A stretch of DNA of 64,000 nucleotides, from assembly GCA_002631715.1 (NCBI GenBank), contig MRSX01000001.1, positions 48,057 to 112,056 of the forward strand, read 5' to 3'. Every line of letters starts with the position of its first letter. The first letter of the stretch is position 1. Below, piece by piece: positions 4,848 to 43,099 of this stretch. The notes under the pieces are model-generated. The model was not told the origin of the DNA and did no database searches. It saw only the letters and a program-made list of their open reading frames with translations. This DNA comes from Candidatus Porisulfidus sp. TsSOB (lineage in GTDB: Bacteria; Pseudomonadota; Gammaproteobacteria; Poriferisulfidales; Poriferisulfidaceae). The position numbers and the translations under genes are program-made.

Positions 4848-5149
4848 GCGGGCGTGGCGGAACCGGTAGACGCTGCGGACTTGAGGCCATTGAGTGCTCT
4901 TCGGGAAACCGGGGATGCAGAACTGCTCAAATTCGGGGAACCCTGTGAAATGGCGATCCCGAGCCAAGCCCGGGAGGGGACTTCCGGGAAGGTGTAGAGA
5001 CTAGACGGGCAGCGCCTAAGGTCGGACGGCTAAGGCGAAGGGATAGTCCGGACCACAAACGCCGCACAGCGGCGGCGGCGAAAGCCGTAGTTGGTGCGAA
5101 AATCCGCTGGGCTTTGCCCGTGGGGGTTCGAATCCCTCCGCCCGCACCA
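4848..5149 (+). tRNA. tRNA-Leu (anticodon UAA) split by a group I intron. Exon 1 is 4848-4882, exon 2 is 5099-5149.
   Basis: The 5' segment GCGGGCGTGGCGGAACCGGTAGACGCTGCGGACTT matches the acceptor, D-arm and anticodon 5' stem of type II tRNA-Leu. The 3' segment AAAATCCGCTGGGCTTTGCCCGTGGGGGTTCGAATCCCTCCGCCCGCACCA gives the anticodon 3' stem (TCCGC pairs GCGGA), a variable-arm hairpin, the T-arm, a 7-bp acceptor perfectly complementary to GCGGGCG, a discriminator A and CCA. The joined exons give an 86-nt tRNA with loop CUUAAAA. Gly-Cys-Leu order mirrors E. coli glyW-cysT-leuZ. Confidence 0.8.
4883..5098 (+). ncRNA. group I self-splicing intron (IC3-like, tRNA anticodon-loop type)
   Basis: Inserted between U34 and A35 of the UAA anticodon. 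The 5' splice site follows U (exon ACUU can pair with intron GAGU to form P1 with a U-G wobble) and the intron ends in G (omega-G 5098). Core elements: GGGAAACC, AAATTCGG, R-like GGTGTAGAGACTAGACGG and S-like GAAGGGATAGTCCGG (P7 pairing GACTA/TAGTC), then P9-type GC hairpins (CGCCGCACAGCGGCG; GGCGAAAGCC). About 216 nt. Confidence 0.75.
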
Positions 5150-5243
5150 TATCCCCCTGAAAACCGCATGAAAACAGGCCTTTCTGCTATACTCTGCCGA
5201 CTCAATAGGGCTGGAAGCGAACGGTAATTTCGTCGCTAACGCC

Positions 5244-6164
5244 ATGATTCGAAAGATTTTTACGGGCCGCCCGAACTTCATGATGCTGCAGGCGGGTGTT
5301 GCCCTGGCCCTGTTCGCCGCCTTGCTGTACTGGCAAAGGGCGATTCTGGTCGAGGTCTACTGGGGACCTTTGGCGACGCAACTCGGCATGGTCGTCAATG
5401 GCGTCATCGGGGTGTTGTTTCTGGTGGCGTTGGCCCGGGTCTTCTACCTGTTGTTCGCCTACACTCGCGAAGGTCGCGCCATTGCCCTGTTTGAGGAGCA
5501 AGTGGATTTCGGCCTGACCGAAGCCGGTATCGAAAGCCTGTCCGAATCCCTGATCGTGCAGCGTTACCGCGTCCTGCAGCAAGGCCAGTCGGAACTGGAC
5601 CGGCCCCAGCAGGCGGCTTTGTCGGCCATCCTGCTGAATCAGGAGATGACGCGTCTCGGCCTGATTCGCCTGATACAGAGCTTGCTGATCCTGCTCGGCG
5701 TATTCGGGACGGTTGCGTCGTTGTCCTTGGCCCTGGTCGGGGCTTCCGACCTGCTGTCCTTCCCGCAGAACGGGGGCGGCATCAGCCTGGTGGTTCACGG
5801 GATGGCGACCGCGCTCTCCACTACGATGACCGCCATTGCTGCTTATCTGGTGCTGACGCTCATCTTTTCCCGACTGGTGGCGAGCCAATCCAGCGTGTGC
5901 CAGCAGATTGAATTGTTGACCCTGCGCCGGTTGCTGCCGCTGGTGTCACGCGAAGGTGGAAACTTGGCCCATACCCTGGCACTCAGGTTGAAAGACCTGA
6001 ATGAAGTGGCCATCGCCTTGGCAGAGGTCCAGGACCGCCTGACTCCCCACCTTGAGGCCATGCGTCACGAGAGGCACGTGCAGAACGAACACAGTAAAAA
6101 ATTGATGGAAGCGCTGCAAAGCGTTGACAAGACCCTGAGGAAGGGCTTCCGGTTGGACCAGTAA
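5244..6164 (+). CDS. MotA/TolQ/ExbB-family proton-channel protein (4 predicted TM helices)
   Basis: 306 aa. Two N-terminal TM helices, a ~90-aa loop, then TM3-TM4 carrying the family signature GVFGTVASL...GMATALSTTMTAIAAYLVLTLIF (cf. TolQ GLFGTVWGI...GIAEALIATAIGL). Helical C-terminal tail. Confidence 0.7.
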   Translation: MIRKIFTGRPNFMMLQAGVALALFAALLYWQRAILVEVYWGPLATQLGMVVNGVIGVLFLVALARVFYLLFAYTREGRAIALFEEQVDFGLTEAGIESLSESLIVQRYRVLQQGQSELDRPQQAALSAILLNQEMTRLGLIRLIQSLLILLGVFGTVASLSLALVGASDLLSFPQNGGGISLVVHGMATALSTTMTAIAAYLVLTLIFSRLVASQSSVCQQIELLTLRRLLPLVSREGGNLAHTLALRLKDLNEVAIALAEVQDRLTPHLEAMRHERHVQNEHSKKLMEALQSVDKTLRKGFRLDQ

Positions 6165-6169
6165 GGACC

Positions 6170-7069
6170 ATGATCGGCGGCCAATCCTCGTTTCCCGACT
6201 ACGCCTCCCATCTCTCCTCGATCAACGAGGAGAACTTCTGGCCGTCCTTCACCGACATCATGATGGTCGTGGTCATCGTGTTCCTGCTGTCCAGCACGGT
6301 CGCCGTACTGCACAACTGGGACCTGTCCAGGCAAGTCCAGGAAACGGCTGCACTTGAGCAGCAGGCCAGGGAAAGGGCGGAAGATCTGAACCTGCGCCGT
6401 ATGCTGCTTCAGCTCGAGTTGGAGGAGATGCAGGGCCGCATGGAGAAGACCCGTGAGGCACTGGAGGCCAAGACCGGCCAGTTGGAGAAACGGGAGGAAG
6501 ATCTGGCCGGTGCGCAGGGCGCGTTGGCCGAGCAGCAGACGCAGCTGATGGATATGCAGGAGGAATATGCGCGCGTACAGACGGAAATGAAGATGAATCA
6601 GGATGTAAGCGCGGAGCGCGAACTGGAACTGCTTGAGGTGCAGCAGCAGTTGGAGAAGATGCGAGAGGAAAGTGTGCTGCATGAGCAGATGTACGTCGAG
6701 GTCGAGAAACAACAGCGGCAGACTCGAGAGGAACTGGAACTCCTGCAGAAGGAGTACGAGGAGATGGGTGAGAAATACGCGGCGCTGTCCAAACCGGCCC
6801 GCAGTCCCATGGGCAAGGTGGTGGCCGCCGTTCGCCACCGGAAGGTGGATGGGCAGCCGTCATTCATGCTTAAGCTTCCGGACGCCCAGCAATTCGAATC
6901 TATCGGCCAGGAGGAAATGCACCAGGCCCTGTCGCGACTCAAGGAGGAACACGGGGATAAGCTGTTCGTTCGGATCGTAATCCCGATGGACAGCAATCTG
7001 ACCTATCAGGAAGGCTGGGAGTTTTCGCTGGACCTGCTGAGGCGCTACGATTACTACTATGCGGATTGA
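6170..7069 (+). CDS. MotB/ExbD/TolR-like membrane anchor fused to a ~150-aa coiled coil and a C-terminal domain of unknown function (no OmpA/PG-binding domain)
   Basis: 299 aa. N-terminal NEENFWPSFTDIMMVVVIVFLL matches the MotB/ExbD plug-TM with the conserved protonatable Asp. Residues ~50-200 are heptad-rich (QQARERAEDLNLRRMLLQLELEEMQGRMEKTREALEAKTGQLEKREEDLAGAQGALAEQQTQLMDMQEEY...). A ~100-aa globular tail ends in YDYYYAD. Start is 6 bp after the upstream stop with RBS AAGGAC. Confidence 0.6.
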   Translation: MIGGQSSFPDYASHLSSINEENFWPSFTDIMMVVVIVFLLSSTVAVLHNWDLSRQVQETAALEQQARERAEDLNLRRMLLQLELEEMQGRMEKTREALEAKTGQLEKREEDLAGAQGALAEQQTQLMDMQEEYARVQTEMKMNQDVSAERELELLEVQQQLEKMREESVLHEQMYVEVEKQQRQTREELELLQKEYEEMGEKYAALSKPARSPMGKVVAAVRHRKVDGQPSFMLKLPDAQQFESIGQEEMHQALSRLKEEHGDKLFVRIVIPMDSNLTYQEGWEFSLDLLRRYDYYYAD

Positions 7070-7189
7070 AAGGGCAGTCGCTCGGCCATGTGCAGCAACC
7101 GGAATCCGCTTGAAACGGCAGGGGCAAGCCCCATATTAATCGGCGACGCCTGAACTCCCGTACACGACAAGAAAGAGAGGAGCACTCAT

Positions 7190-8116
7190 ATGTCCGGGTC
7201 TGTTGTGATTGAAAATCTGGTCAAGATCTACGGTGACCTGCATGCCGTGGACGACTTGAGTTTTGAGGTCGGATCTGGCGAGGTCTTGGGTTTTCTTGGA
7301 CCGAACGGTGCAGGAAAGTCCACGACCATGAAAATCATCACCGGCTTCCTGCCGCCGACTTCGGGCCGCGTGACGGTTTGTGGCCACCCGGTCGAGACAC
7401 AGCCGGAGGCGGCCAAGAGATGCCTGGGCTATTTGCCGGAGGGCGCACCGGCGTACAGCGAGATGACGCCGTGGCAGTTCCTGAATTTCGTGGCAGACAT
7501 CCGTCGACCCGAAAATCGTCGAGAGCGACTGGACTGGGTCATCGGGCAGCTGGGGCTGGAGCCCGTGCTGCACCGCCCGGTCGACACCCTGTCGAAAGGA
7601 TACCGCCGCCGGGTTGGCCTGGCGCAAGCCATGCTGCACGACCCGCGCGTGCTGATCATGGATGAACCGACCGACGGACTGGATCCGAACCAGAAGCGCC
7701 AGGTGCGCGACTTCATCAATGAGATGGCGAAAGACAAGACCATCATCATTTCGACGCACATTCTCGAGGAGGTCGAGGCCATCTGCACGCGGGCCATCAT
7801 TGTTTCCTCCGGCAAGATCCTGGTCGACGAAACCCCCGAGGAGTTGCGCCGCCGTTCCCGGTACTGCAATGCCGTCACGGTTCAGGCAGAGTTGAAGGAA
7901 CCGGTGCGCACCGCGCTCGGCGAACTCGAAGACGTCGCGGTCGTGGAGCCGGAGCGCAACCAGGGTCTGACCCTGATCCCCCGGCCCGGTTGCACGCTGG
8001 AAGGCGCGGTCCGCGATGTCCTGTTGCGGCATAACCTGAAGGAAGTTCCGTTGCACATCCAGGCCGGGCGGCTGGACGACGTGTTCCACACCCTGACTCA
8101 TAACGTCCATGAATAA
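7190..8116 (+). CDS. ABC transporter ATP-binding protein (GldA-like)
   Basis: 308 aa. Walker A GPNGAGKST, signature LSKGYRRRVGLA, Walker B LIMDEPTDGLD. Confidence 0.9.
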   Translation: MSGSVVIENLVKIYGDLHAVDDLSFEVGSGEVLGFLGPNGAGKSTTMKIITGFLPPTSGRVTVCGHPVETQPEAAKRCLGYLPEGAPAYSEMTPWQFLNFVADIRRPENRRERLDWVIGQLGLEPVLHRPVDTLSKGYRRRVGLAQAMLHDPRVLIMDEPTDGLDPNQKRQVRDFINEMAKDKTIIISTHILEEVEAICTRAIIVSSGKILVDETPEELRRRSRYCNAVTVQAELKEPVRTALGELEDVAVVEPERNQGLTLIPRPGCTLEGAVRDVLLRHNLKEVPLHIQAGRLDDVFHTLTHNVHE

Positions 8117-8843
8117 CTTGATCGCGATTCTGCGCCGGGAACTGGTGGGCTATTTCCAGACGCCGGTCGCCTATGTCTTCATCATGATCTTCCTCCTGCT
8201 GTCCGGGACGCTGAGTTTCTATCTGGGAAATTTCTACGAGCGTGAGCAGGCGGACTTGGGCGCATTCTTCACATTTCATCCCTGGTTGTACTTGTTTCTG
8301 GTCCCGGCCATCTCCATGCGCCTGTGGGCAGAGGAGCGAAAGACCGGCAGCATCGAACTGCTGATGACGCTCCCGGTGACCGTGTCGCAGGCGGTACTCG
8401 GGAAGTTTCTGGCAGCTTGGATCTTCACCGGCATCGCGTTGTTCCTGACGTTCCCGATTTGGCTCACGGTCAACTATCTGGGCGATCCGGACAACGGCAT
8501 CATCTTGGGCGCCTACCTGGGCAGTTTCCTGATGGCAGGCGGGTTCATGGCCATCGGTGCCTGTATTTCCGCGACCACGCGCAACCAGGTCGTGGCATTC
8601 ATCCTCAGCCTGGTGACTTGCTTCCTCTTCCTGTTGAGCGGCTTTCCGCTGGTACTGGACTTCTTCCAGTTGTGGCTTCCGCAGCCGGTCGTCGATGCCA
8701 TCGCATCGCTTAGCTTTCTGACTCACTTCTCCTCGATCAACAAGGGCGTGATCGACCTGCGGGATCTGTCCTACTTCGTGATCCTGATCTCGGTCTGGCT
8801 GTACGCCAACATGATCGTGGTCCGAGCCCGCAAGGCAGCATGA
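8109..8843 (+). CDS. ABC-2 family transporter permease
   Basis: 244 aa, 6 predicted TM helices. Overlaps the upstream ATPase stop (translational coupling). Confidence 0.8.
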   Translation: MNNLIAILRRELVGYFQTPVAYVFIMIFLLLSGTLSFYLGNFYEREQADLGAFFTFHPWLYLFLVPAISMRLWAEERKTGSIELLMTLPVTVSQAVLGKFLAAWIFTGIALFLTFPIWLTVNYLGDPDNGIILGAYLGSFLMAGGFMAIGACISATTRNQVVAFILSLVTCFLFLLSGFPLVLDFFQLWLPQPVVDAIASLSFLTHFSSINKGVIDLRDLSYFVILISVWLYANMIVVRARKAA

Positions 8844-10723
8844 ACGGCTCGAATAGAAAGACCTATACGGCGGCAGGGCTCGGCCTGTTGGCCGTGCTGT
8901 TTGTCTCTTCCATCATGTTGAGCAATCTGGCCTTGGACAACATGCGGCTGGATCTGACCGAACAGAAGCTCTACACCATGAGCGAGGGAACCCTGAAGGT
9001 AATCGACAGCATCCAGCAGCCGATCAACCTGTACCTGTTCTTCTCGGATCGGGCCAGCGCAGAAAACGCCCCCCTGCGCAACTACGCCCGGCGGGTTCGG
9101 GAACTGCTGGAAGAGTATACGTATTATTCGGACGGTCGGCTGATCCTGCACGTGATCGATCCGGCGCCGTATTCGGAAGAGGAAGACCGGGCGACGGAGT
9201 TCAATTTGCAATCGCTCCCAATGCAAGGCGGCGACAAGTTGTATTTCGGCCTGGTTGGCACGAATGTGGTGGATGACGTCGAAGTCATCGAATTCTTCCA
9301 GCCGGACCGCGAGGCCTTCCTTGAGTACGACATCAGCCAGTTGATCTATGCCCTGACGAATCCGGCGAAGCCCGTGGTGGGAATCCTTACCGGCCTGCAG
9401 GTATTCGGCGGGTTTGACTTGGCAAGCCAGCAATCCACGCCCCAGTGGGCGATCCTCGACCATATCGAACGACTGTTCGAGGCCCGCCAGATCGACATTG
9501 AAGCTGGGGTGATCGACCCGGACATCCGGATCCTGATGCTGATTCACCCGAAGGACCTGTCCGAGAAAATGCTGTATGCGGTGGACCAGTTCCTGATGCG
9601 TGGGGGACGGCTAATGCTGTTCGCCGACCCGTATGCGGACAAGGACCCCATGTTCCAGGATGCCAGCAATCCTCCGGATTCGGGCGGAATTCAGGCCTCC
9701 GAAATCGATCGGTTGCTGGATGCGTGGGGGCTTGAGATCGGCATGGACGCGATCGTGGCCGACCGAGCCTTGGCCCTGCCGGTGCAGAGCCCGAATGTCC
9801 AGCGGCCGGTTCGCCATGTCTCGTTCATCGGGCTTGACGAGGAAGGAATCAACAAGGACAACCTGATCTCCGCCCAGCTGTCCCGGGTAACGTTCGCGTT
9901 CGCGGGTCAGATCAAGAAGACGGACGCGTTCCAGGGTGAGTTCGAGCCGCTCTTGTACACGTCGGAGGATTCCGGAGAGATTCCGAAGCCGCGCTACCGA
10001 CACCTTCCCGACCCGACTGCCTTGCTGGAGTGGTTCGAACCCGGTAATACCCCCCTGACGCTGGCTGCTTGGGTGCGGCTGCAGCCGGACAGCATGTTCC
10101 CGGAGGGCCCGCCTGAGGATGCGGCGCCGCCTGCGGACGGCCATTTGGCTGAGGCACGGGAGGTGGTCGACGCGATCGTGGTTGCGGATGCCGACATGCT
10201 GTCGGATACCTTGTGGGCGCGGGTGCAGAACTTTTTTGGGCAGCGGATCGTACAGGCTTGGGCCAGCAACGGCGATTTCATTGTCAACGCACTGGAGAGT
10301 CTGGCTGGCAGCGGCGACTTAATCGGCTTGCGGGGTCGTTCCGAATTTGCGAGACCGTTCCATGTGGTCGAACAACTGCGGCGACAGGCGGAGCAACGGT
10401 TCCATGTCAAGGAGGAAGAGCTCCAGCAGCGGCTGCAGGAGGCGGAGGAAAACATCGGCCGGATCCAGCAGCTGAGACAGGAAGGGGAGCAGAGCCTGTT
10501 GACGGAGCAGCAGCGTGCTGAAATCGAGGCTTTCCAGCAAGAGCGGTTACGGGTACGCCGTGAGTTGCGCTCGGTTCGACACGAACTGGATCGGGATATC
10601 GAACACCTCGGCTTCGTCCTGCGCCTGATCAATATCTGGCTGGTTCCAGTCTTGGTCACGATGGCTGCAGTCGGTCTGTGGCTGTTTCAGCGCCGGCGCC
10701 GTTCCCGGAGGGCGACCTCATGA
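8840..10723 (+). CDS. GldG-like ABC-type auxiliary component (ABC_transp_aux family)
   Basis: 627 aa. N-terminal TM, large periplasmic domain, C-terminal TM with coiled coil. Typical partner of the preceding ABC pair. Confidence 0.7.
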   Translation: MNGSNRKTYTAAGLGLLAVLFVSSIMLSNLALDNMRLDLTEQKLYTMSEGTLKVIDSIQQPINLYLFFSDRASAENAPLRNYARRVRELLEEYTYYSDGRLILHVIDPAPYSEEEDRATEFNLQSLPMQGGDKLYFGLVGTNVVDDVEVIEFFQPDREAFLEYDISQLIYALTNPAKPVVGILTGLQVFGGFDLASQQSTPQWAILDHIERLFEARQIDIEAGVIDPDIRILMLIHPKDLSEKMLYAVDQFLMRGGRLMLFADPYADKDPMFQDASNPPDSGGIQASEIDRLLDAWGLEIGMDAIVADRALALPVQSPNVQRPVRHVSFIGLDEEGINKDNLISAQLSRVTFAFAGQIKKTDAFQGEFEPLLYTSEDSGEIPKPRYRHLPDPTALLEWFEPGNTPLTLAAWVRLQPDSMFPEGPPEDAAPPADGHLAEAREVVDAIVVADADMLSDTLWARVQNFFGQRIVQAWASNGDFIVNALESLAGSGDLIGLRGRSEFARPFHVVEQLRRQAEQRFHVKEEELQQRLQEAEENIGRIQQLRQEGEQSLLTEQQRAEIEAFQQERLRVRRELRSVRHELDRDIEHLGFVLRLINIWLVPVLVTMAAVGLWLFQRRRRSRRATS

Positions 10724-11748
10724 ACCGTCGCGAATTGAACATCTTGGCGATCCTGACTGGGATCGTGTTGCTCTTGACTGCCGCGATGTACAACATCCGT
10801 TACCAGTCTGGCGACCAGGAATACATCGGGAGCTTGTGGCTTGAGAATCTCGATATCAACTCCGTCACCCGCATCGACGTCACCGGGCCGGGGAATATGC
10901 CGCAGGTCGCCTTGGAGCGTCGCCCGGAAGGGTGGGGAGTGGTGCAGCGTCAGCACTATCCTGCGAATGTAGGCGCCATCCGCAGCCTGTTGCTGGACTT
11001 GTCGGAAGCAAAACTGCTTGAGCGCAAGACCCATGATCCGGCGCAACATGCCCAGTTGGGCTTGGGCGGAATCGAACGGCTCGAGGCAAAAGGGCAGCAG
11101 GTTACGCTTCACTCAGCGGAAGGTGCTCAGTCGGTTCGCATTGGCGCGACCCCGGATGGGCGCAGCGCCACTTATGTACGAAATGCCGACGACGATCAGG
11201 GCTGGCTTGTGGATCGGACATTCACGATCCCAAGCGAACCACGACGCTGGCTCGACCCGGAGTTGCTGGATATCGGAATGGAGCAGATACAACGGATGGA
11301 AGTCGTGCACCCGGATGGAGAAAGGATCGAAGGGCAACGGGCGGAAGAAGCCGCGGACGTGAAATTCACTGTGCTCAACCTCCCCGAAGGCGCGACGCTG
11401 AAAAACGAGTACGCACTCAGCCGGATGGCCAGCGCCATTGCCAGCCTGTCGCTAGAGGATGTCATGCCGGCATCCCAAGCCGAGGTTTACCTGGAAGACG
11501 CGGCCCAAGCCCGGTACGAGTTCTATCAGGGCTACAGCCTGGAAGCGCGCTTGTTCCCAGTGGATGTGGAACGGTATGCACGCTTTACGGTGCACTTGGG
11601 AGAGGACATGAGCGACGAAGACCGTACCCGGGCGAGCATGCTTGCCCGGCATCTTGAGGGCTGGGCATTCCGAATCCCGTCTTTCGCCCATGACAGCATG
11701 GCACTGCGTTGGGCCGATATTCTGGAGGGAGGCGAGGAGCCCGAGTAA
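10720..11748 (+). CDS. DUF4340-like protein (usual fourth gene of GldG-type ABC clusters)
   Basis: Start taken at MNRRELNILAILTGIVLLL (signal anchor), overlapping the gldG-like stop (ATGA). 342 aa. Confidence 0.55.
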   Translation: MNRRELNILAILTGIVLLLTAAMYNIRYQSGDQEYIGSLWLENLDINSVTRIDVTGPGNMPQVALERRPEGWGVVQRQHYPANVGAIRSLLLDLSEAKLLERKTHDPAQHAQLGLGGIERLEAKGQQVTLHSAEGAQSVRIGATPDGRSATYVRNADDDQGWLVDRTFTIPSEPRRWLDPELLDIGMEQIQRMEVVHPDGERIEGQRAEEAADVKFTVLNLPEGATLKNEYALSRMASAIASLSLEDVMPASQAEVYLEDAAQARYEFYQGYSLEARLFPVDVERYARFTVHLGEDMSDEDRTRASMLARHLEGWAFRIPSFAHDSMALRWADILEGGEEPE

Positions 11749-11749
11749 T

Positions 11750-14225
<2,476 letters not shown>

Positions 14226-39840: not shown

Positions 39841-40250
39841 AGTTCCAGATTCGCCAGGAAGATACTCTTTCGATCCCGCTGACGCCGCTGGTCGATGTCG
39901 TGTTCCTGTTGCTACTGTTCTTTATGCTGACCACGACATTCAGCCAACTCGATTTCCTGAAAATCCAGTTGCCGCAGGGTGAAGCTGAAGCGGCCGGCAC
40001 CGAAGTGCGCATCAACCTGGCCATTGATGCAATGGGCGACTATTACCTGAACGGACAACTCCTTCCAGACGAACCCGAAGCTTTGGCGGCACAGTTGCGC
40101 GTCGCGCTCGCGGAGCAACCAGACGCGGCGGTCTATATCTACGCCCATGCGCTGACGCCGCACCAGTCGGTCGTGTACCTGATGGCGCAAGCCCGGGGAC
40201 AGGGCGTGCAGCAAATCCGGGTTGCAACAATGGGCGAACGCTTGCCATGA
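39837..40250 (+). CDS. ExbD/TolR biopolymer transport protein
   Basis: GTG start overlapping the exbB stop. IPLTPLVDVVFLLLLFFMLTT TM with conserved Asp. 137 aa. Confidence 0.8.
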   Translation: MKFQIRQEDTLSIPLTPLVDVVFLLLLFFMLTTTFSQLDFLKIQLPQGEAEAAGTEVRINLAIDAMGDYYLNGQLLPDEPEALAAQLRVALAEQPDAAVYIYAHALTPHQSVVYLMAQARGQGVQQIRVATMGERLP

Positions 40251-43099
40251 ACGAGACCGCACGCCGTTCCGGCATGGACATTTACCGGCAGTTGCTGCGG
40301 CTGGCCCTGAAGGGTCAGGCGGGCATTCTGGCGTTGGCGGTGCTGGGTATGGTGATGGAGGCCGCGACGGGCCCCGCGTTGTCCGCACTGATGAAACCGA
40401 TCCTGGACGGCGCGATCGTCGAGCAGCAGCCGGATGTCATTCGCTGGGTGCCGCTGGCCCTGATCGGGATTTTCGTGCTGCGGGCGGCCGGCTCGTATCT
40501 CAGCGCATCCTGCATGGCGCAGATCGGTGCGCGCCTGGTTCGGGACTTGCGGCGGAAAATGTTTGCGCGTCTGCTCGAATTCCCGGCAGAGATCCACGAC
40601 CATACCGCTTCCAGTGATTTCCTGGCATGCATCACCAGTCACGTCGGGGGCGTGACCACGGCGGCATCGAAAAGCCTCACCATCCTGATCCGGGACAGCC
40701 TGATGGTGATTGGTCTAATCGGCTGGATGCTGTACGTGAGCTGGATTCTGACGGTGGCCTTCCTGGCAGCCGTCCCGGTATTCGCCTGGCTGATTCCCAG
40801 CAGCAATCGGAGAATCCGGAAGCTTAGCCACCGCATGATGGAGGCGCTTACCGCGACTGTGCAGAACGCCCAGGAGGTGATTCAGGGCTACCGGGTTGTG
40901 AAGGTGTTCCAAGCCGAGAAGATGGAGAAAACACGTTTCGATGAGACGACCGAACATTTCCGGAAGCGAGACGTCCGCACGCAGCAGATGTCGGCTCTGG
41001 TGTCTTCGGTCATCATGCTGCTGGTCGGGTTGGCCTGGGCCGGCATCGTTTACCTGGTAACGCTGGAAGGGGTGCTCAGCACCATTACGGTCGGCGGATT
41101 CGTGTCGTTCATGTTCGCCATGTTGATGCTGTTGGCTCCGGCACGCAACCTGGTGCAGGTCAATACCCGGTTGCAGCAGAGCATCGCTGCCGGGCAACAG
41201 GTCTTCCAGATGCTGGACACCCCGACGGAGCAGGATCAGGGCGAACATTCCAAGCAGGACCTGCAGCATTCAATTGTCTATGATCGGATCAGCTTGCGTT
41301 ACCGCAATGCGGACCGTGAAGCACTTCACAATGTCTCGCTGACGATCCGACGTGGCGAGACCGTCGCCTTGGTCGGGCGCTCCGGCTCCGGCAAATCTTC
41401 GCTGGCTAACCTGTTGCCGCGTTTCTATGCTCCGCAGAGCGGGGAAATCCGGATTGACGACATTTCAATCAACGATCTGAAACTGTCCGATCTGCGCGGG
41501 TTGATCAGCTACGTGGGACAGAACGTGGTGCTGTTCAACGACACGGTACGCAACAACATCACCTATGGAGTGGACCCGGACCAGCAGCACGACCTGGAGC
41601 AGGCGCTGCGAAGCGCGCATGTCGACGAGTTCGTGGACCGCCTGCCGCAGGGCTTGGAGACCATCATCGGGGAAGGGGGTGTACAGCTTTCGGGGGGCCA
41701 GCGGCAGCGCTTGGCCTTGGCTCGGGCTTTGTACAAGCGGGCTCCAATCCTGATCCTAGACGAGGCAACCTCGTCGCTGGACAGTGAATCCGAGCGGTAC
41801 GTGCAGGACGCTTTGGACAAGATCATGGAAGTCTCCACTACCCTGATCATCGCGCATCGACTGTCGACGGTGGAACGGGCGGACCGGATCGTCGTCCTGG
41901 ATCAGGGCGAGGTTGTCGAGCAGGGCACGCATGAGGAGTTGATCCAGAGGAACCAGGTCTACAGGAAGCTCTACCAGCATCAATTCCAGGATGTGGGGAT
42001 CGTGGAGGAGCGTCCACCTCGCCGTGGGGAGTTGCTGGAGGAGGAGAGCACCCGGCATCAGTCTTGGATGACGCGTTTTGCCGAGAGCGTCTGGTACGAG
42101 GACAGCCGCTGGGTGTGGGCCTTGCGGCCATTGGGTTGGCTGTATCGCACCGGTGTGTTCCTGCGGCGGGTCTGGCGCCGTTGGCTCAATCGACCGCCTG
42201 CCTTGCCCGTGCCTGTGGCGGTGATCGGCAACCTGAGCGTCGGAGGCACCGGGAAAACTCCTCTGGTGGTCTGGCTTGCGCTCCGGCTTCGAAGTCTGGG
42301 GGTTTCAGTCGGGATCGTGTGCCGGGGTTACCGGGGCGACAGTCCAACCTGGCCCCGCGAGGTTGATGCCGTGACCAGCCCCGATGAAGTCGGGGAGGAA
42401 GCGGTTCTGATTGCGGCACAGACGGGCTGTCCCGTGTTTGCGGGACCGGACCGGGTTGCTGCCGCGCAGGCACTCTGCGAGCGGCATACCGTCAGCATCA
42501 TCCTCTCGGATGACGGGTTGCAGCATTTGGGTTTGTCACGGCAGATCGAAATTCTGGTGGTAGATGGCAAACGCCGGCACGGCAACGGCCTGTGCCTGCC
42601 TGCCGGGCCGCTGAGAGAACCGCTTGGACGCGCACGTCTGGCTAATTGGACCCTGGTGCACGGAGGAGATCCGGAACCGGGAGAACACCGGTTCGACTTG
42701 CAGGTGAAGCACCTGCGCTCCTTGCTTGACGGCAGTACGGCCCCGCTGTCCAGCCTTGCAGGGCAGACCGTGCATGCGGTCTGCGGGATCGGGAATCCGG
42801 ACCGGTTCCTGGAATCCTTGGCCAGCGCCGGGATCGACGCGATTCCGCACATCTACGAGGATCATCATGCTTTCCGAGTTGGTCAACTCGACTTCGCGGA
42901 CGGTCACGCGGTTGTCATGACGCCCAAGGATGCGGTCAAGTGCGAGCGTTTTGCCCGTGAACGGTGGTATTCTTTGGAGGTCGACGTGGCGCTGGAACCG
43001 GCTGTCGCCGAGGAAATCATCGGCGGCGCGCAACGCGCCATTGAGGAAAACCGAAAGGCCAAGGCACTGGATACCTTGGATGCCGAGGCGGGAACATGA
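40247..43099 (+). CDS. lipid A export ABC transporter MsbA fused in frame to tetraacyldisaccharide 4'-kinase LpxK
   Basis: 950-aa continuous ORF. Residues 1-~585 are an MsbA-type exporter (6 TM; GRSGSGKSSL, LSGGQRQRLALARAL, ILILDEATSSLD; ends KLYQHQFQ). A ~20-aa linker follows, then from MTRFAESVWYEDSRW a complete LpxK domain (VPVAVIGNLSVGGTGKTPLVVWLA P-loop). No stop codon between the domains. Confidence 0.85.
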   Translation: MNETARRSGMDIYRQLLRLALKGQAGILALAVLGMVMEAATGPALSALMKPILDGAIVEQQPDVIRWVPLALIGIFVLRAAGSYLSASCMAQIGARLVRDLRRKMFARLLEFPAEIHDHTASSDFLACITSHVGGVTTAASKSLTILIRDSLMVIGLIGWMLYVSWILTVAFLAAVPVFAWLIPSSNRRIRKLSHRMMEALTATVQNAQEVIQGYRVVKVFQAEKMEKTRFDETTEHFRKRDVRTQQMSALVSSVIMLLVGLAWAGIVYLVTLEGVLSTITVGGFVSFMFAMLMLLAPARNLVQVNTRLQQSIAAGQQVFQMLDTPTEQDQGEHSKQDLQHSIVYDRISLRYRNADREALHNVSLTIRRGETVALVGRSGSGKSSLANLLPRFYAPQSGEIRIDDISINDLKLSDLRGLISYVGQNVVLFNDTVRNNITYGVDPDQQHDLEQALRSAHVDEFVDRLPQGLETIIGEGGVQLSGGQRQRLALARALYKRAPILILDEATSSLDSESERYVQDALDKIMEVSTTLIIAHRLSTVERADRIVVLDQGEVVEQGTHEELIQRNQVYRKLYQHQFQDVGIVEERPPRRGELLEEESTRHQSWMTRFAESVWYEDSRWVWALRPLGWLYRTGVFLRRVWRRWLNRPPALPVPVAVIGNLSVGGTGKTPLVVWLALRLRSLGVSVGIVCRGYRGDSPTWPREVDAVTSPDEVGEEAVLIAAQTGCPVFAGPDRVAAAQALCERHTVSIILSDDGLQHLGLSRQIEILVVDGKRRHGNGLCLPAGPLREPLGRARLANWTLVHGGDPEPGEHRFDLQVKHLRSLLDGSTAPLSSLAGQTVHAVCGIGNPDRFLESLASAGIDAIPHIYEDHHAFRVGQLDFADGHAVVMTPKDAVKCERFARERWYSLEVDVALEPAVAEEIIGGAQRAIEENRKAKALDTLDAEAGT

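Follow-up and report, generated by a model that had tools for sequence, protein, structure and literature searches.

Two adjacent genes on the forward strand of the window (the whole stretch of 64,000 nucleotides that was analysed) encode an uncharacterised relative of the proton-driven Ton, Tol and flagellar-stator motors, and the same two genes are also predicted by public pipelines. Genes for tRNA-Gly and tRNA-Cys lie upstream of gene 1, together with a third tRNA, tRNA-Leu(UAA), which is split by a group I intron and was missed by ARAGORN. The host is diderm, with LolA, LolC/E-type and MsbA-LpxK genes within the window. The features of the locus are as follows.

5185-5193, + strand: TGCTATACT, extended -10-like element ~50 bp upstream of gene 1, candidate own promoter
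5244-6164, + strand: gene 1, 306-aa A subunit of the MotA/ExbB/TolQ superfamily
5637-5912, + strand: gene 1 channel core, residues 132-223 (TM3, periplasmic loop, TM4), from the Pfam range and invariant columns
5964-6149, + strand: gene 1 C-terminal cytoplasmic helix, residues 241-302, an AF2 helix with the G-F-R-L motif at its end
6162-6169, + strand: gene 1 stop TAA overlapping an AAGGA Shine-Dalgarno sequence, then a 5-bp spacer before gene 2
6170-7069, + strand: gene 2, 299-aa B subunit, ExbD/TolR-like with inserted coiled coil
6233-6310, + strand: gene 2 trans-pore TM helix, residues 22-47, from invariant columns, the ExbD alignment and the ZorB1 match
6254-6256, + strand: Asp29 codon of gene 2
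6311-6784, + strand: continuous heptad coiled coil of gene 2, residues ~48-205, ~23 nm if extended
6791-6805, + strand: K-P-A-R-S junction motif at the rod/head border, residues 208-212, with P209, A210 and R211 invariant
6806-7066, + strand: predicted TolR/ExbD-fold head, residues 213-299 (strand-strand-strand-helix-strand-helix), invariant D-Y-Y at its end
7190-11748, + strand: GldG-type ABC-2 transporter, adjoining gene 2 downstream

The overlap of stop codon and Shine-Dalgarno sequence and the 5-bp spacer suggest translational coupling of the two genes. Homologues of gene 1 and gene 2 stand side by side on the same strand in all 80 of 80 homologous loci, with intergenic gaps that range from -32 to +79 bp and lie mostly between -8 and +7 where ORF calls allowed measuring, and the pair is an obligate, always-paired unit. 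The possible own -10 (TATACT, 5188-5193) pointed out in the initial annotation is present, and the TGCTATACT element is conserved 3' of tRNA-Leu in Porisulfidus loci (alignment columns ~790-803), which supports it as a candidate promoter of the pair; a consensus promoter scan called no full -35/-10 site there.

Gene 1 and the Asp-bearing helix of gene 2

Gene 1 matches the Pfam family MotA_ExbB (PF01618) over residues 132-223 at 25.5 bits, a marginal score against the gathering cut-off of 22.9 bits, and a PF01618 match is not on record for many of its homologues. This score above the cut-off and four hydrophobic segments (residues ~13-33, 45-72, 140-165 and 185-210) agree with the initial assignment to four-TM MotA/TolQ/ExbB channels, and an N-in charge bias predicts that the N- and C-termini are both cytoplasmic. 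ExbB and TolQ have a topology of three TM segments, whereas gene 1 has a fourth, N-terminal one. Structure comparison reveals the A-subunit fold, a long TM with a cytoplasmic helical bundle, and the fold search ranks ExbB first and ZorA second. As in MotA/ExbB/TolQ channels, in which the channel threonines face the Asp of the B subunit, a conserved Thr is present in each of the last two TM helices: G152-V-F-G-T156 and T193-T194 are invariant among 31 aligned homologues, and hhalign places T156 on T148 and T194 on T181 of ExbB, in a weak match (E 7.8e-4, probability 25%). Further conservation is seen in the cytoplasmic C-terminal region of ~95 aa, where G301, F302, R303 and L304 are nearly invariant in the homologue alignment. 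The gene 1 family HMM run against PDB sequences gave only helical noise for the C-terminal helix and did not find the PDB entries for ExbB/TolQ, and a profile search with the gene 1 alignment returned, among the matches listed, only in-family proteins.

Gene 2 has a single TM segment by hydropathy (residues 22-52), and this N-proximal helix carries an Asp, as in ExbD/TolR. The motif W24-P-S-x-T-D29 (WPSFTD) is invariant, Asp29 being so in 34 homologues, and hhalign places D29 on ExbD D25 in a weak match (E 1.2e-4, probability 54%); the MotB/ExbD-type plug helix with conserved Asp recognised at the outset is thereby borne out. The His-containing SHLS motif is absent from the helix. Similarity to ExbD in sequence stays under the Pfam cut-off, with 14.2 bits against 25.4 for ExbD/TolR (PF02472), in the TM region only, and the NCBIfam model ExbD_1 scores 12.8 against a cut-off of 152.95, while the PADLOC model ZorB1 matches at 2.7e-6, likewise in the TM region only.

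Coiled coil and head domain of gene 2

From residue ~48 to ~205 the heptad register of gene 2 is constant throughout, and between residues 51 and 205 there are 34 Glu, 22 Gln and not one Pro, in keeping with the long heptad-rich coiled coil described initially. The short linker between TM and head seen in ExbD/TolR (proteins of ~130-150 aa) is not found here: Asp29 and the head are 180 residues apart, and across the family this spacing ranges from 124 to 415. It equals 5 modulo 7 in 212 of 246 distinct sequences, with a second class at 2 modulo 7, equal to one 4-residue stutter, and the main heptad phase holds 25 of the 57 distinct length classes (p 6.7e-8). A spacing shared modulo 7 argues for a continuous, parallel, in-register rod, and steps of single heptads (180, 187, 194, 201, 208, 215, 222) point to a parallel homodimer; in a hairpin, lengths would have to change by 14 residues at a time. 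The commonest rod lengths in the family equal 23-28 nm, and a heptad-quantised rod is consistent with the TolA/TonB-like reach built on a MotB-type anchor that had been envisaged; in some members the rod reaches up to ~58 nm, more than any periplasm is wide, and an orientation at right angles to the membrane can therefore not hold throughout the family. Any stable coiled coil is expected to be heptad-quantised, and the quantisation is therefore no proof of torque transmission.

Beyond the K-P-A-R-S motif and the invariant G215 just past it, the C-terminal ~90 residues model confidently as a periplasmic domain of the TolR/ExbD type, ending in RRYDYYYAD as first reported. On the strength of this model the head appears to be a TolR-like alpha/beta fold and not a new one, and its initial description as an unrecognised fold has to be given up. 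The strand-strand-strand-helix-strand-helix fold is common, and the likeness to TolR comes from the fold search alone: sequence profiles retrieve no TolR/ExbD, nothing meaningful was returned for the head by an HMM search against PDB sequences or by hhalign against E. coli TolR, and the family profiles fail to retrieve canonical ExbB/TolQ/ExbD/TolR by sequence. A search for OmpA-family matches in gene 2 (E <= 1) found none, so the reported lack of an OmpA/peptidoglycan-binding domain holds, and with its Asp-bearing TM, its long coiled coil and a composition that is not Pro-rich the B subunit is indeed non-canonical. Residues 22-187 match the NCBIfam model of the PRK09039 type at E 1.1e-4 (22 bits against a cut-off of 305), a match that may be driven by composition only. 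This 'peptidoglycan-binding protein', with a MotB-like TM, a coiled coil and an OmpA-like C-terminus, is arranged much as gene 2 is, a TM followed by a coil and by a head of the wall-binding type; its head, however, is OmpA-like, whereas that of gene 2 is predicted to have the TolR fold.

Distribution and neighbourhood of the pair

No third conserved gene was found within ~10 kb across the 80 loci. With the threshold relaxed to E 1e-3, every other neighbour family is still confined to 12 or fewer of the 74 loci, and no additional component that is small or evolves fast came to light. The pair is surrounded by housekeeping genes that differ from lineage to lineage (ThiC, cystathionine beta-synthase, ferrochelatase, mnmE/mnmG and others of the kind), a TonB/TolA-like gene lies beside none of the 80 loci, and no homologues were found in plasmid and phage collections. 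The tRNA cluster and the GldG-type ABC system adjoin the pair only in the host genus, Ca. Porisulfidus, and tRNAs are missing from the four loci checked in other lineages. As an isolated pair, it occurs in Pseudomonadota and Desulfuromonadales, has at least 516 carrier genomes, is kept even by Ca. Porisulfidus, whose genomes are small (chromosomes of 1.6-2.0 Mb), and has homologues in sequences labelled scaly-snail endosymbiont and Ca. Thiodiazotropha. The initial annotation had itself treated conservation at this locus in relatives as evidence against its interpretation, and within Porisulfidus such conservation is what is seen, synteny being preserved in each of the six further genome loci retrieved, at identities as low as 48%. 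The pair is thus a chromosomal core gene pair, and not a phage-defence module or the accessory module that its position after a tRNA operon had been thought to indicate.

The analysis establishes that both proteins belong by fold to the motor family, that the Asp and Thr residues are conserved, that the pairing is obligate, that the rod is quantised in heptads and that the context is one of chromosomal housekeeping genes. The pair is very probably a divergent motor pair of the ExbB/ExbD type with a B subunit extended by a coiled coil. Of the initial interpretation as a whole, the A+B pair of stator/Ton/Tol type with its non-canonical B subunit stands, and the new head fold, the Zorya or accessory module and the coupling to the ABC system do not. 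No Pfam or NCBIfam model describes such a design, and no description of a coiled-coil ExbD/TolR was found in the literature searched, in accordance with the claim that the architecture is undescribed.

Proposed mechanism and its alternatives

We give an even chance to the reading that the pair makes up a self-contained '5:2' motor, of the same class as MotAB/ExbBD/TolQR and driven by the ion-motive force (pmf), in which the B subunit also serves as the shaft or tether that spans the periplasm. In this model the ring in the membrane would be built from gene 1, with its ExbB-like fold, four TM segments and both channel threonines kept, and the central dimeric axle from gene 2, with the Asp29-bearing helix inside the gene 1 ring; the stoichiometry would be A5B2. 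The Asp29 helix would run unbroken into a dimeric coiled coil, parallel and in register, with ~155 residues (~23 nm) and carrying the TolR-fold domain at its tip, and this rod, presumably periplasmic and extended, would be long enough for most or all of the Gram-negative periplasm and would fix the helical phase between Asp helix and head. Since the pair is not accompanied by a third, TonB/TolA-like protein, the B subunit is taken as the trans-periplasmic element. TolR engages peptidoglycan, and the B subunit may hold or turn its head on a ubiquitous envelope partner, either peptidoglycan or an outer-membrane component, so that protons flowing at the inner membrane would drive force generation, rotation or a pmf-dependent tether across the envelope. 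The physiological output is probably envelope maintenance. More tentatively, and with rather less than even confidence, the pair could represent a third way, arrived at independently, of coupling energy across the envelope: a minimal machine of two proteins whose ExbD/TolR-type axle has become a rigid, heptad-phased coiled-coil drive shaft that delivers pmf-driven rotation or tension to the wall or the outer membrane without a TonB/TolA-like transducer.

A different use of the same parts, which we think unlikely, would be a peptidoglycan-anchored stator with cytoplasmic or inner-membrane output in the manner of MotAB or ZorAB, in which rod and head anchor the axle, the gene 1 ring rotates and the GFRL helix drives a partner. 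The TolR fold of the head, which binds the wall in TolR (5BY4), would suit such a stator, as would the conserved ~95-residue cytoplasmic C-terminus with its near-invariant GFRL and the second place of ZorA in the fold ranking; yet MotB and TolR reach the wall by linkers much shorter than a rigid rod of 23-28 nm, no cytoplasmic partner gene is conserved nearby, and the cytoplasmic part of gene 1 is no bigger than that of ExbB. It is also improbable that we are dealing with an ordinary Ton/Tol-type paralogue whose coiled coil is just an elongated ExbD linker and which supplies energy to a TonB- or TolA-like transducer with its gene at another locus. With ExbB as the top fold match and a TolR-fold head, and with tonB often unlinked from exbBD (PMC12204202), such a partner gene may lie elsewhere in the genome, beyond the ~10-kb neighbourhoods, but none accompanies any of the 80 loci, the linkers of canonical ExbD/TolR are short (PMC9389320), the extra N-terminal TM sets gene 1 apart from ExbB/TolQ, and the family profiles pass the canonical proteins by.

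The two remaining readings, both raised by the initial annotation, were rejected. A Zorya-like or other antiphage or accessory module inserted beside a tRNA operon is highly improbable: ZorA-ZorB is a 5:2-class relative whose ZorB TM is the best sequence match for the gene 2 helix, the PADLOC matches, though weak, include ZorA1 (2.9e-4) as well as ZorB1, ZorA is among the top fold matches and tRNA genes lie directly upstream, but the long cytoplasmic coiled coil on ZorA, the wall-binding ZorB, the effectors and the defence island that mark Zorya are missing here, neither ZorC/D/E nor any other third gene is conserved, and the housekeeping neighbours, the plasmid and phage collections devoid of homologues, the Porisulfidus synteny and the tRNA-free loci of other lineages all speak against it. 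Equally hard to credit is an energiser of the adjacent GldG-type ABC-2 transporter, which does follow the pair immediately on the same strand within the window; among the loci analysed this adjacency is limited to those of Porisulfidus type, the 120-bp gap between the two units holds a sigma-70-like site (7110-7137), and ABC transporters run on ATP.

The preferred reading, a B subunit acting as its own shaft, can be set beside known systems. Compared with ExbB-ExbD/TolQ-TolR, the pair inserts ~155 or more coiled-coil residues between TM and head and has no TonB/TolA, Pal or TolB gene linked to it. GldM is considered to be a shaft that crosses the periplasm, and the likeness to GldL-GldM/PorL-PorM is that the inner (B) dimer forms a long and fairly rigid periplasmic shaft of its own, with a separate transducer unneeded (PMC9389320). 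This likeness is one of functional analogy only: gene 2 shows no match to the GldM/PorM family and no detected relationship in sequence or fold to the GldM shaft, which consists of globular domains and not of a coiled coil, GldL has two TM segments against four in gene 1, and GldLM belongs to large T9SS gene sets of Bacteroidota, unlike the isolated pair. TolQ-like motors with an Asp-bearing axle fused to the transducer have been predicted in the TPH-vWA proteins (PMC12204202). There, too, a TolQ-like gene accompanies an Asp-bearing trans-pore helix protein with its own periplasmic effector domain, and a separate TolR/ExbD or TonB/TolA is missing, but the effector is a vWA domain and the gene pairs are heterologous, in contrast to the single B gene, coiled-coil rod and predicted TolR-fold head described here.

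How 5:2 motors make ion flow do work at a distance from the inner membrane remains debated for Ton, Tol and gliding, and this two-gene system may do without a third transducer. With an axle that is a simple coiled coil changing by whole heptads, it would be an unusually clean model, in which rod length and phase are engineerable, shaft rotation could be directly readable and the TolR-like head is a defined endpoint. It would further indicate that extension can turn the ExbD/TolR scaffold into a transducer, adding to the recently predicted axle-transducer fusions, and for annotation it means that at least several hundred species carry two 'hypothetical proteins' that form a motor pair.

The gene pair and its products

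The two reading frames of the initial annotation were borne out at the same positions, both on the forward strand:

5244-6164, + strand: gene 1 (A subunit), ORF call, 306 aa
6170-7069, + strand: gene 2 (B subunit), ORF call, 299 aa

Public pipelines call both ORFs identically in three independent contigs. As read from the sequence, an AAGGA Shine-Dalgarno overlaps the gene 1 stop codon and is followed by a 5-bp spacer to the gene 2 ATG. The gene 1 homologue lies directly upstream of the gene 2 homologue, on the same strand, in 80 of 80 fetched loci, with a gap of mostly -8 to +7 bp where ORF calls allowed measurement.

Gene 2 has a single membrane helix; W24, P25, S26, T28 and D29 are invariant among 34 homologues, and hhalign places D29 on ExbD D25 (E 1.2e-4), while the top sequence match of the membrane region is that of ZorB (2.7e-6). 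No OmpA-like domain was detected in gene 2, as the initial annotation had stated, and the C-terminal fold that it left unrecognised can be corrected: the last ~90 residues, modelled from a 26-sequence alignment (pLDDT 88.3, pTM 0.77), show a strand-strand-strand-helix-strand-helix topology, which in the model is a TolR/ExbD-fold head. The most fitting description of gene 2 is an ExbD/TolR homologue whose membrane helix and periplasmic domain are set apart by a long inserted coiled coil.

Gene 1 matches Pfam MotA_ExbB over residues 132-223, at 25.5 bits against a cut-off of 22.9, and hydropathy gives four membrane segments, with an N-in, C-in topology suggested by the basic N-terminus and the K/R-rich composition of the last ~95 residues. 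Its AF2 model, from 31 homologues, reaches pLDDT 79.5. The invariant motifs G152-V-F-G-T156 and T193-T194 align, if weakly, with the ExbB segments holding T148 and T181. The family HMM retrieved no ExbB, TolQ or MotA from PDB sequences, and the gene 1 family is thus very divergent in sequence.

A rod that changes length by heptads

One heptad register runs throughout gene 2 residues about 48-205, and residues 51-205 are free of proline and rich in Glu, Gln and Leu; in sequence, the coil shows little conservation. For 246 distinct sequences of the family, rod length was measured as the distance between the membrane Asp and the Pro in the invariant K-P-A-R-S junction. This distance spans 124-415 residues (median 194) and equals 5 modulo 7 in 212 of the 246, the populated lengths being 159, 166, 173, 180, 187, 194, 201, 208, 215, 222 and onward; a further 14 sequences form the second class, at 2 modulo 7, i.e. 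one 4-residue stutter. With each length value counted once, 25 of 57 share the 5-modulo-7 phase (binomial p 6.7e-8). Insertions and deletions are therefore tolerated almost only as whole heptads, which indicates a rod that would be continuous and keep its helical phase from the Asp helix to the head; steps of single rather than paired heptads likewise indicate a probable parallel homodimeric coil, not a hairpin. For the protein in the window, a distance of 180 corresponds by computation to about 154 helical residues beyond the membrane, or about 23 nm, and the commonest length classes to 23-28 nm, comparable to the width of the Gram-negative periplasm. The earlier idea of a coiled coil with periplasm-long reach is strengthened by this heptad-quantised rod.

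Distribution and genomic setting

A pattern scan with one genome per species found a relative in at least 516 species. The best matches are 'Candidatus Porisulfidus' assemblies (93-96% identity), and the remaining carriers belong to Gammaproteobacteria (Thiotrichales, Ectothiorhodospiraceae, Sedimenticolaceae), Zetaproteobacteria and Desulfuromonadales. Chemosynthetic lineages that oxidise sulfur or iron, and symbionts, account for many carriers in the homologue lists, among them Ca. Porisulfidus (sponges), Ca. Thiodiazotropha, the scaly-snail endosymbiont, Sedimenticolaceae and Zetaproteobacteria. A head-domain profile matched only 377 clusters among 1.84 billion representative proteins, the domain being C-terminal in 150 of the 150 best matches listed; the gene 1 profile matched about 2,000 90%-identity clusters, nearly all labelled hypothetical and including scaly-snail endosymbiont and Ca. 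Thiodiazotropha proteins.

No conserved third gene was found: with the threshold relaxed to E 1e-3, the most frequent neighbour family still reaches only 12 of 74 loci. What flanks the pair is of housekeeping type and differs by lineage (ThiC, cystathionine beta-synthase, ferrochelatase, glycerate kinase, HemN, RimO and mnmE/mnmG, among others), and searches of 72,556 plasmids and 50,697 phage records gave no match to gene 2. These observations speak against the Zorya or defence reading of the initial annotation; housekeeping neighbours, missing plasmid and phage matches and genus-wide conservation are characteristic of a core pair passed on vertically, not of a mobile or defence module.

Within Porisulfidus the whole locus arrangement persists even where protein identity falls to 48%. 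Upstream of gene 1 lie tRNA-Gly(GCC) and tRNA-Cys(GCA), together with the following features, and an ABC operon follows gene 2:

~4848-5149, + strand: tRNA-Leu(UAA) with group I intron, third tRNA of the cluster; exons read by eye, not called by ARAGORN
4873-5061, + strand: group I intron (Rfam Intron_gpI), 39.3 bits, below the gathering score of 50, E 7.4e-8
5185-5193, + strand: TGCTATACT, extended -10-like element between tRNA-Leu and gene 1, from sequence reading and an alignment of Porisulfidus loci
7190-11748, + strand: four-gene ABC-2 system (ATPase, ABC-2 permease, GldG-like protein, DUF4340 protein)

The intron, of about 210 nt, splits tRNA-Leu(UAA) between U34 and A35, the insertion site of the cyanobacterial and plastid tRNA-Leu intron, whereas here it occurs in a gammaproteobacterial symbiont of sponges; all six other Porisulfidus loci retain both exons and intron, with paired changes in some stems. 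The TATACT noted earlier at 5188-5193 is present, with TGC just before it. In the alignment, TGCTATACT is kept in Porisulfidus loci, including one with a gene 2 at just 48% identity, and a second conserved element, CACTATGAT, lies 5' of tRNA-Leu.

All six Porisulfidus loci carry the tRNA cluster, and four loci from other lineages lack it; being genus-specific beside a vertically inherited pair, the cluster does not favour an accessory module attached to a tRNA operon. Energising of the ABC system, whose GldG-like ABC_transp_aux/DUF7088 protein ends in a coiled coil and a TM segment, fares no better, since the operon adjoins the pair, among the loci analysed, only in those of Porisulfidus type and is separated from gene 2 in the window by 120 bp with a sigma-70-like site at 7110-7137. 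The neighbourhood survey thus gave tRNA and ABC associations confined to the genus. Elsewhere in the window, a 470-aa TnpB/IS605 OrfB-type protein (12781-14193, + strand; HTH_OrfB_IS605, OrfB_IS605 and Cas12f1-like TNB domains) lies between a thioredoxin reductase-like gene and ftsK, and a 950-aa single ORF (40247-43099, + strand) joining an MsbA-type ABC exporter (ABC_membrane, ABC_tran) to a complete LpxK domain (tetraacyldisaccharide-1-P 4'-kinase) looks like a fusion of msbA with lpxK.

Probable motor core and proposed output

The pair very probably represents a divergent family of 5:2 motors, the MotAB/ExbBD/TolQR class in which a ring of A subunits surrounds a B-subunit axle, with a novel B-subunit architecture. 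Conserved Asp and Thr residues, a ring subunit resembling ExbB and the obligate pairing of A with B together point to a pmf-driven 5:2-type motor, its stoichiometry predicted, as the most likely core. The coiled-coil/TolR-head type is not mentioned in a recent survey that predicts analogous axle-transducer fusions with vWA heads (PMC12204202), nor described in the MotAB/GIT classification (PMC12505986) or in the 5:2 review; of the initial interpretation, the undescribed architecture and the reach are supported, and the Zorya, accessory-module and ABC readings are not.

The point of difference from described systems is the output. Ton and Tol bridge the periplasm with a third protein, TonB or TolA, whereas no third protein is linked to the pair in this family; a Ton/Tol-like paralogue whose transducer is encoded elsewhere is a further, less likely alternative. 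The flagellar stator and Zorya fix their B subunit to the wall and deliver their output in the cytoplasm; the main rival is a wall-anchored stator in which the conserved cytoplasmic GFRL helix of gene 1 would be the output. GldLM uses the B subunit as the shaft that crosses the periplasm (PMC9389320). The lack of a linked third protein, together with a long phase-locked rod bearing a TolR-type head, favours by analogy a GldM-like logic on an ExbD/TolR scaffold, in which the axle itself would act as transducer. That no partner gene travels with the pair would then be accounted for by a partner common to every host, the TolR-type head engaging peptidoglycan or an outer-membrane component present in all of them.
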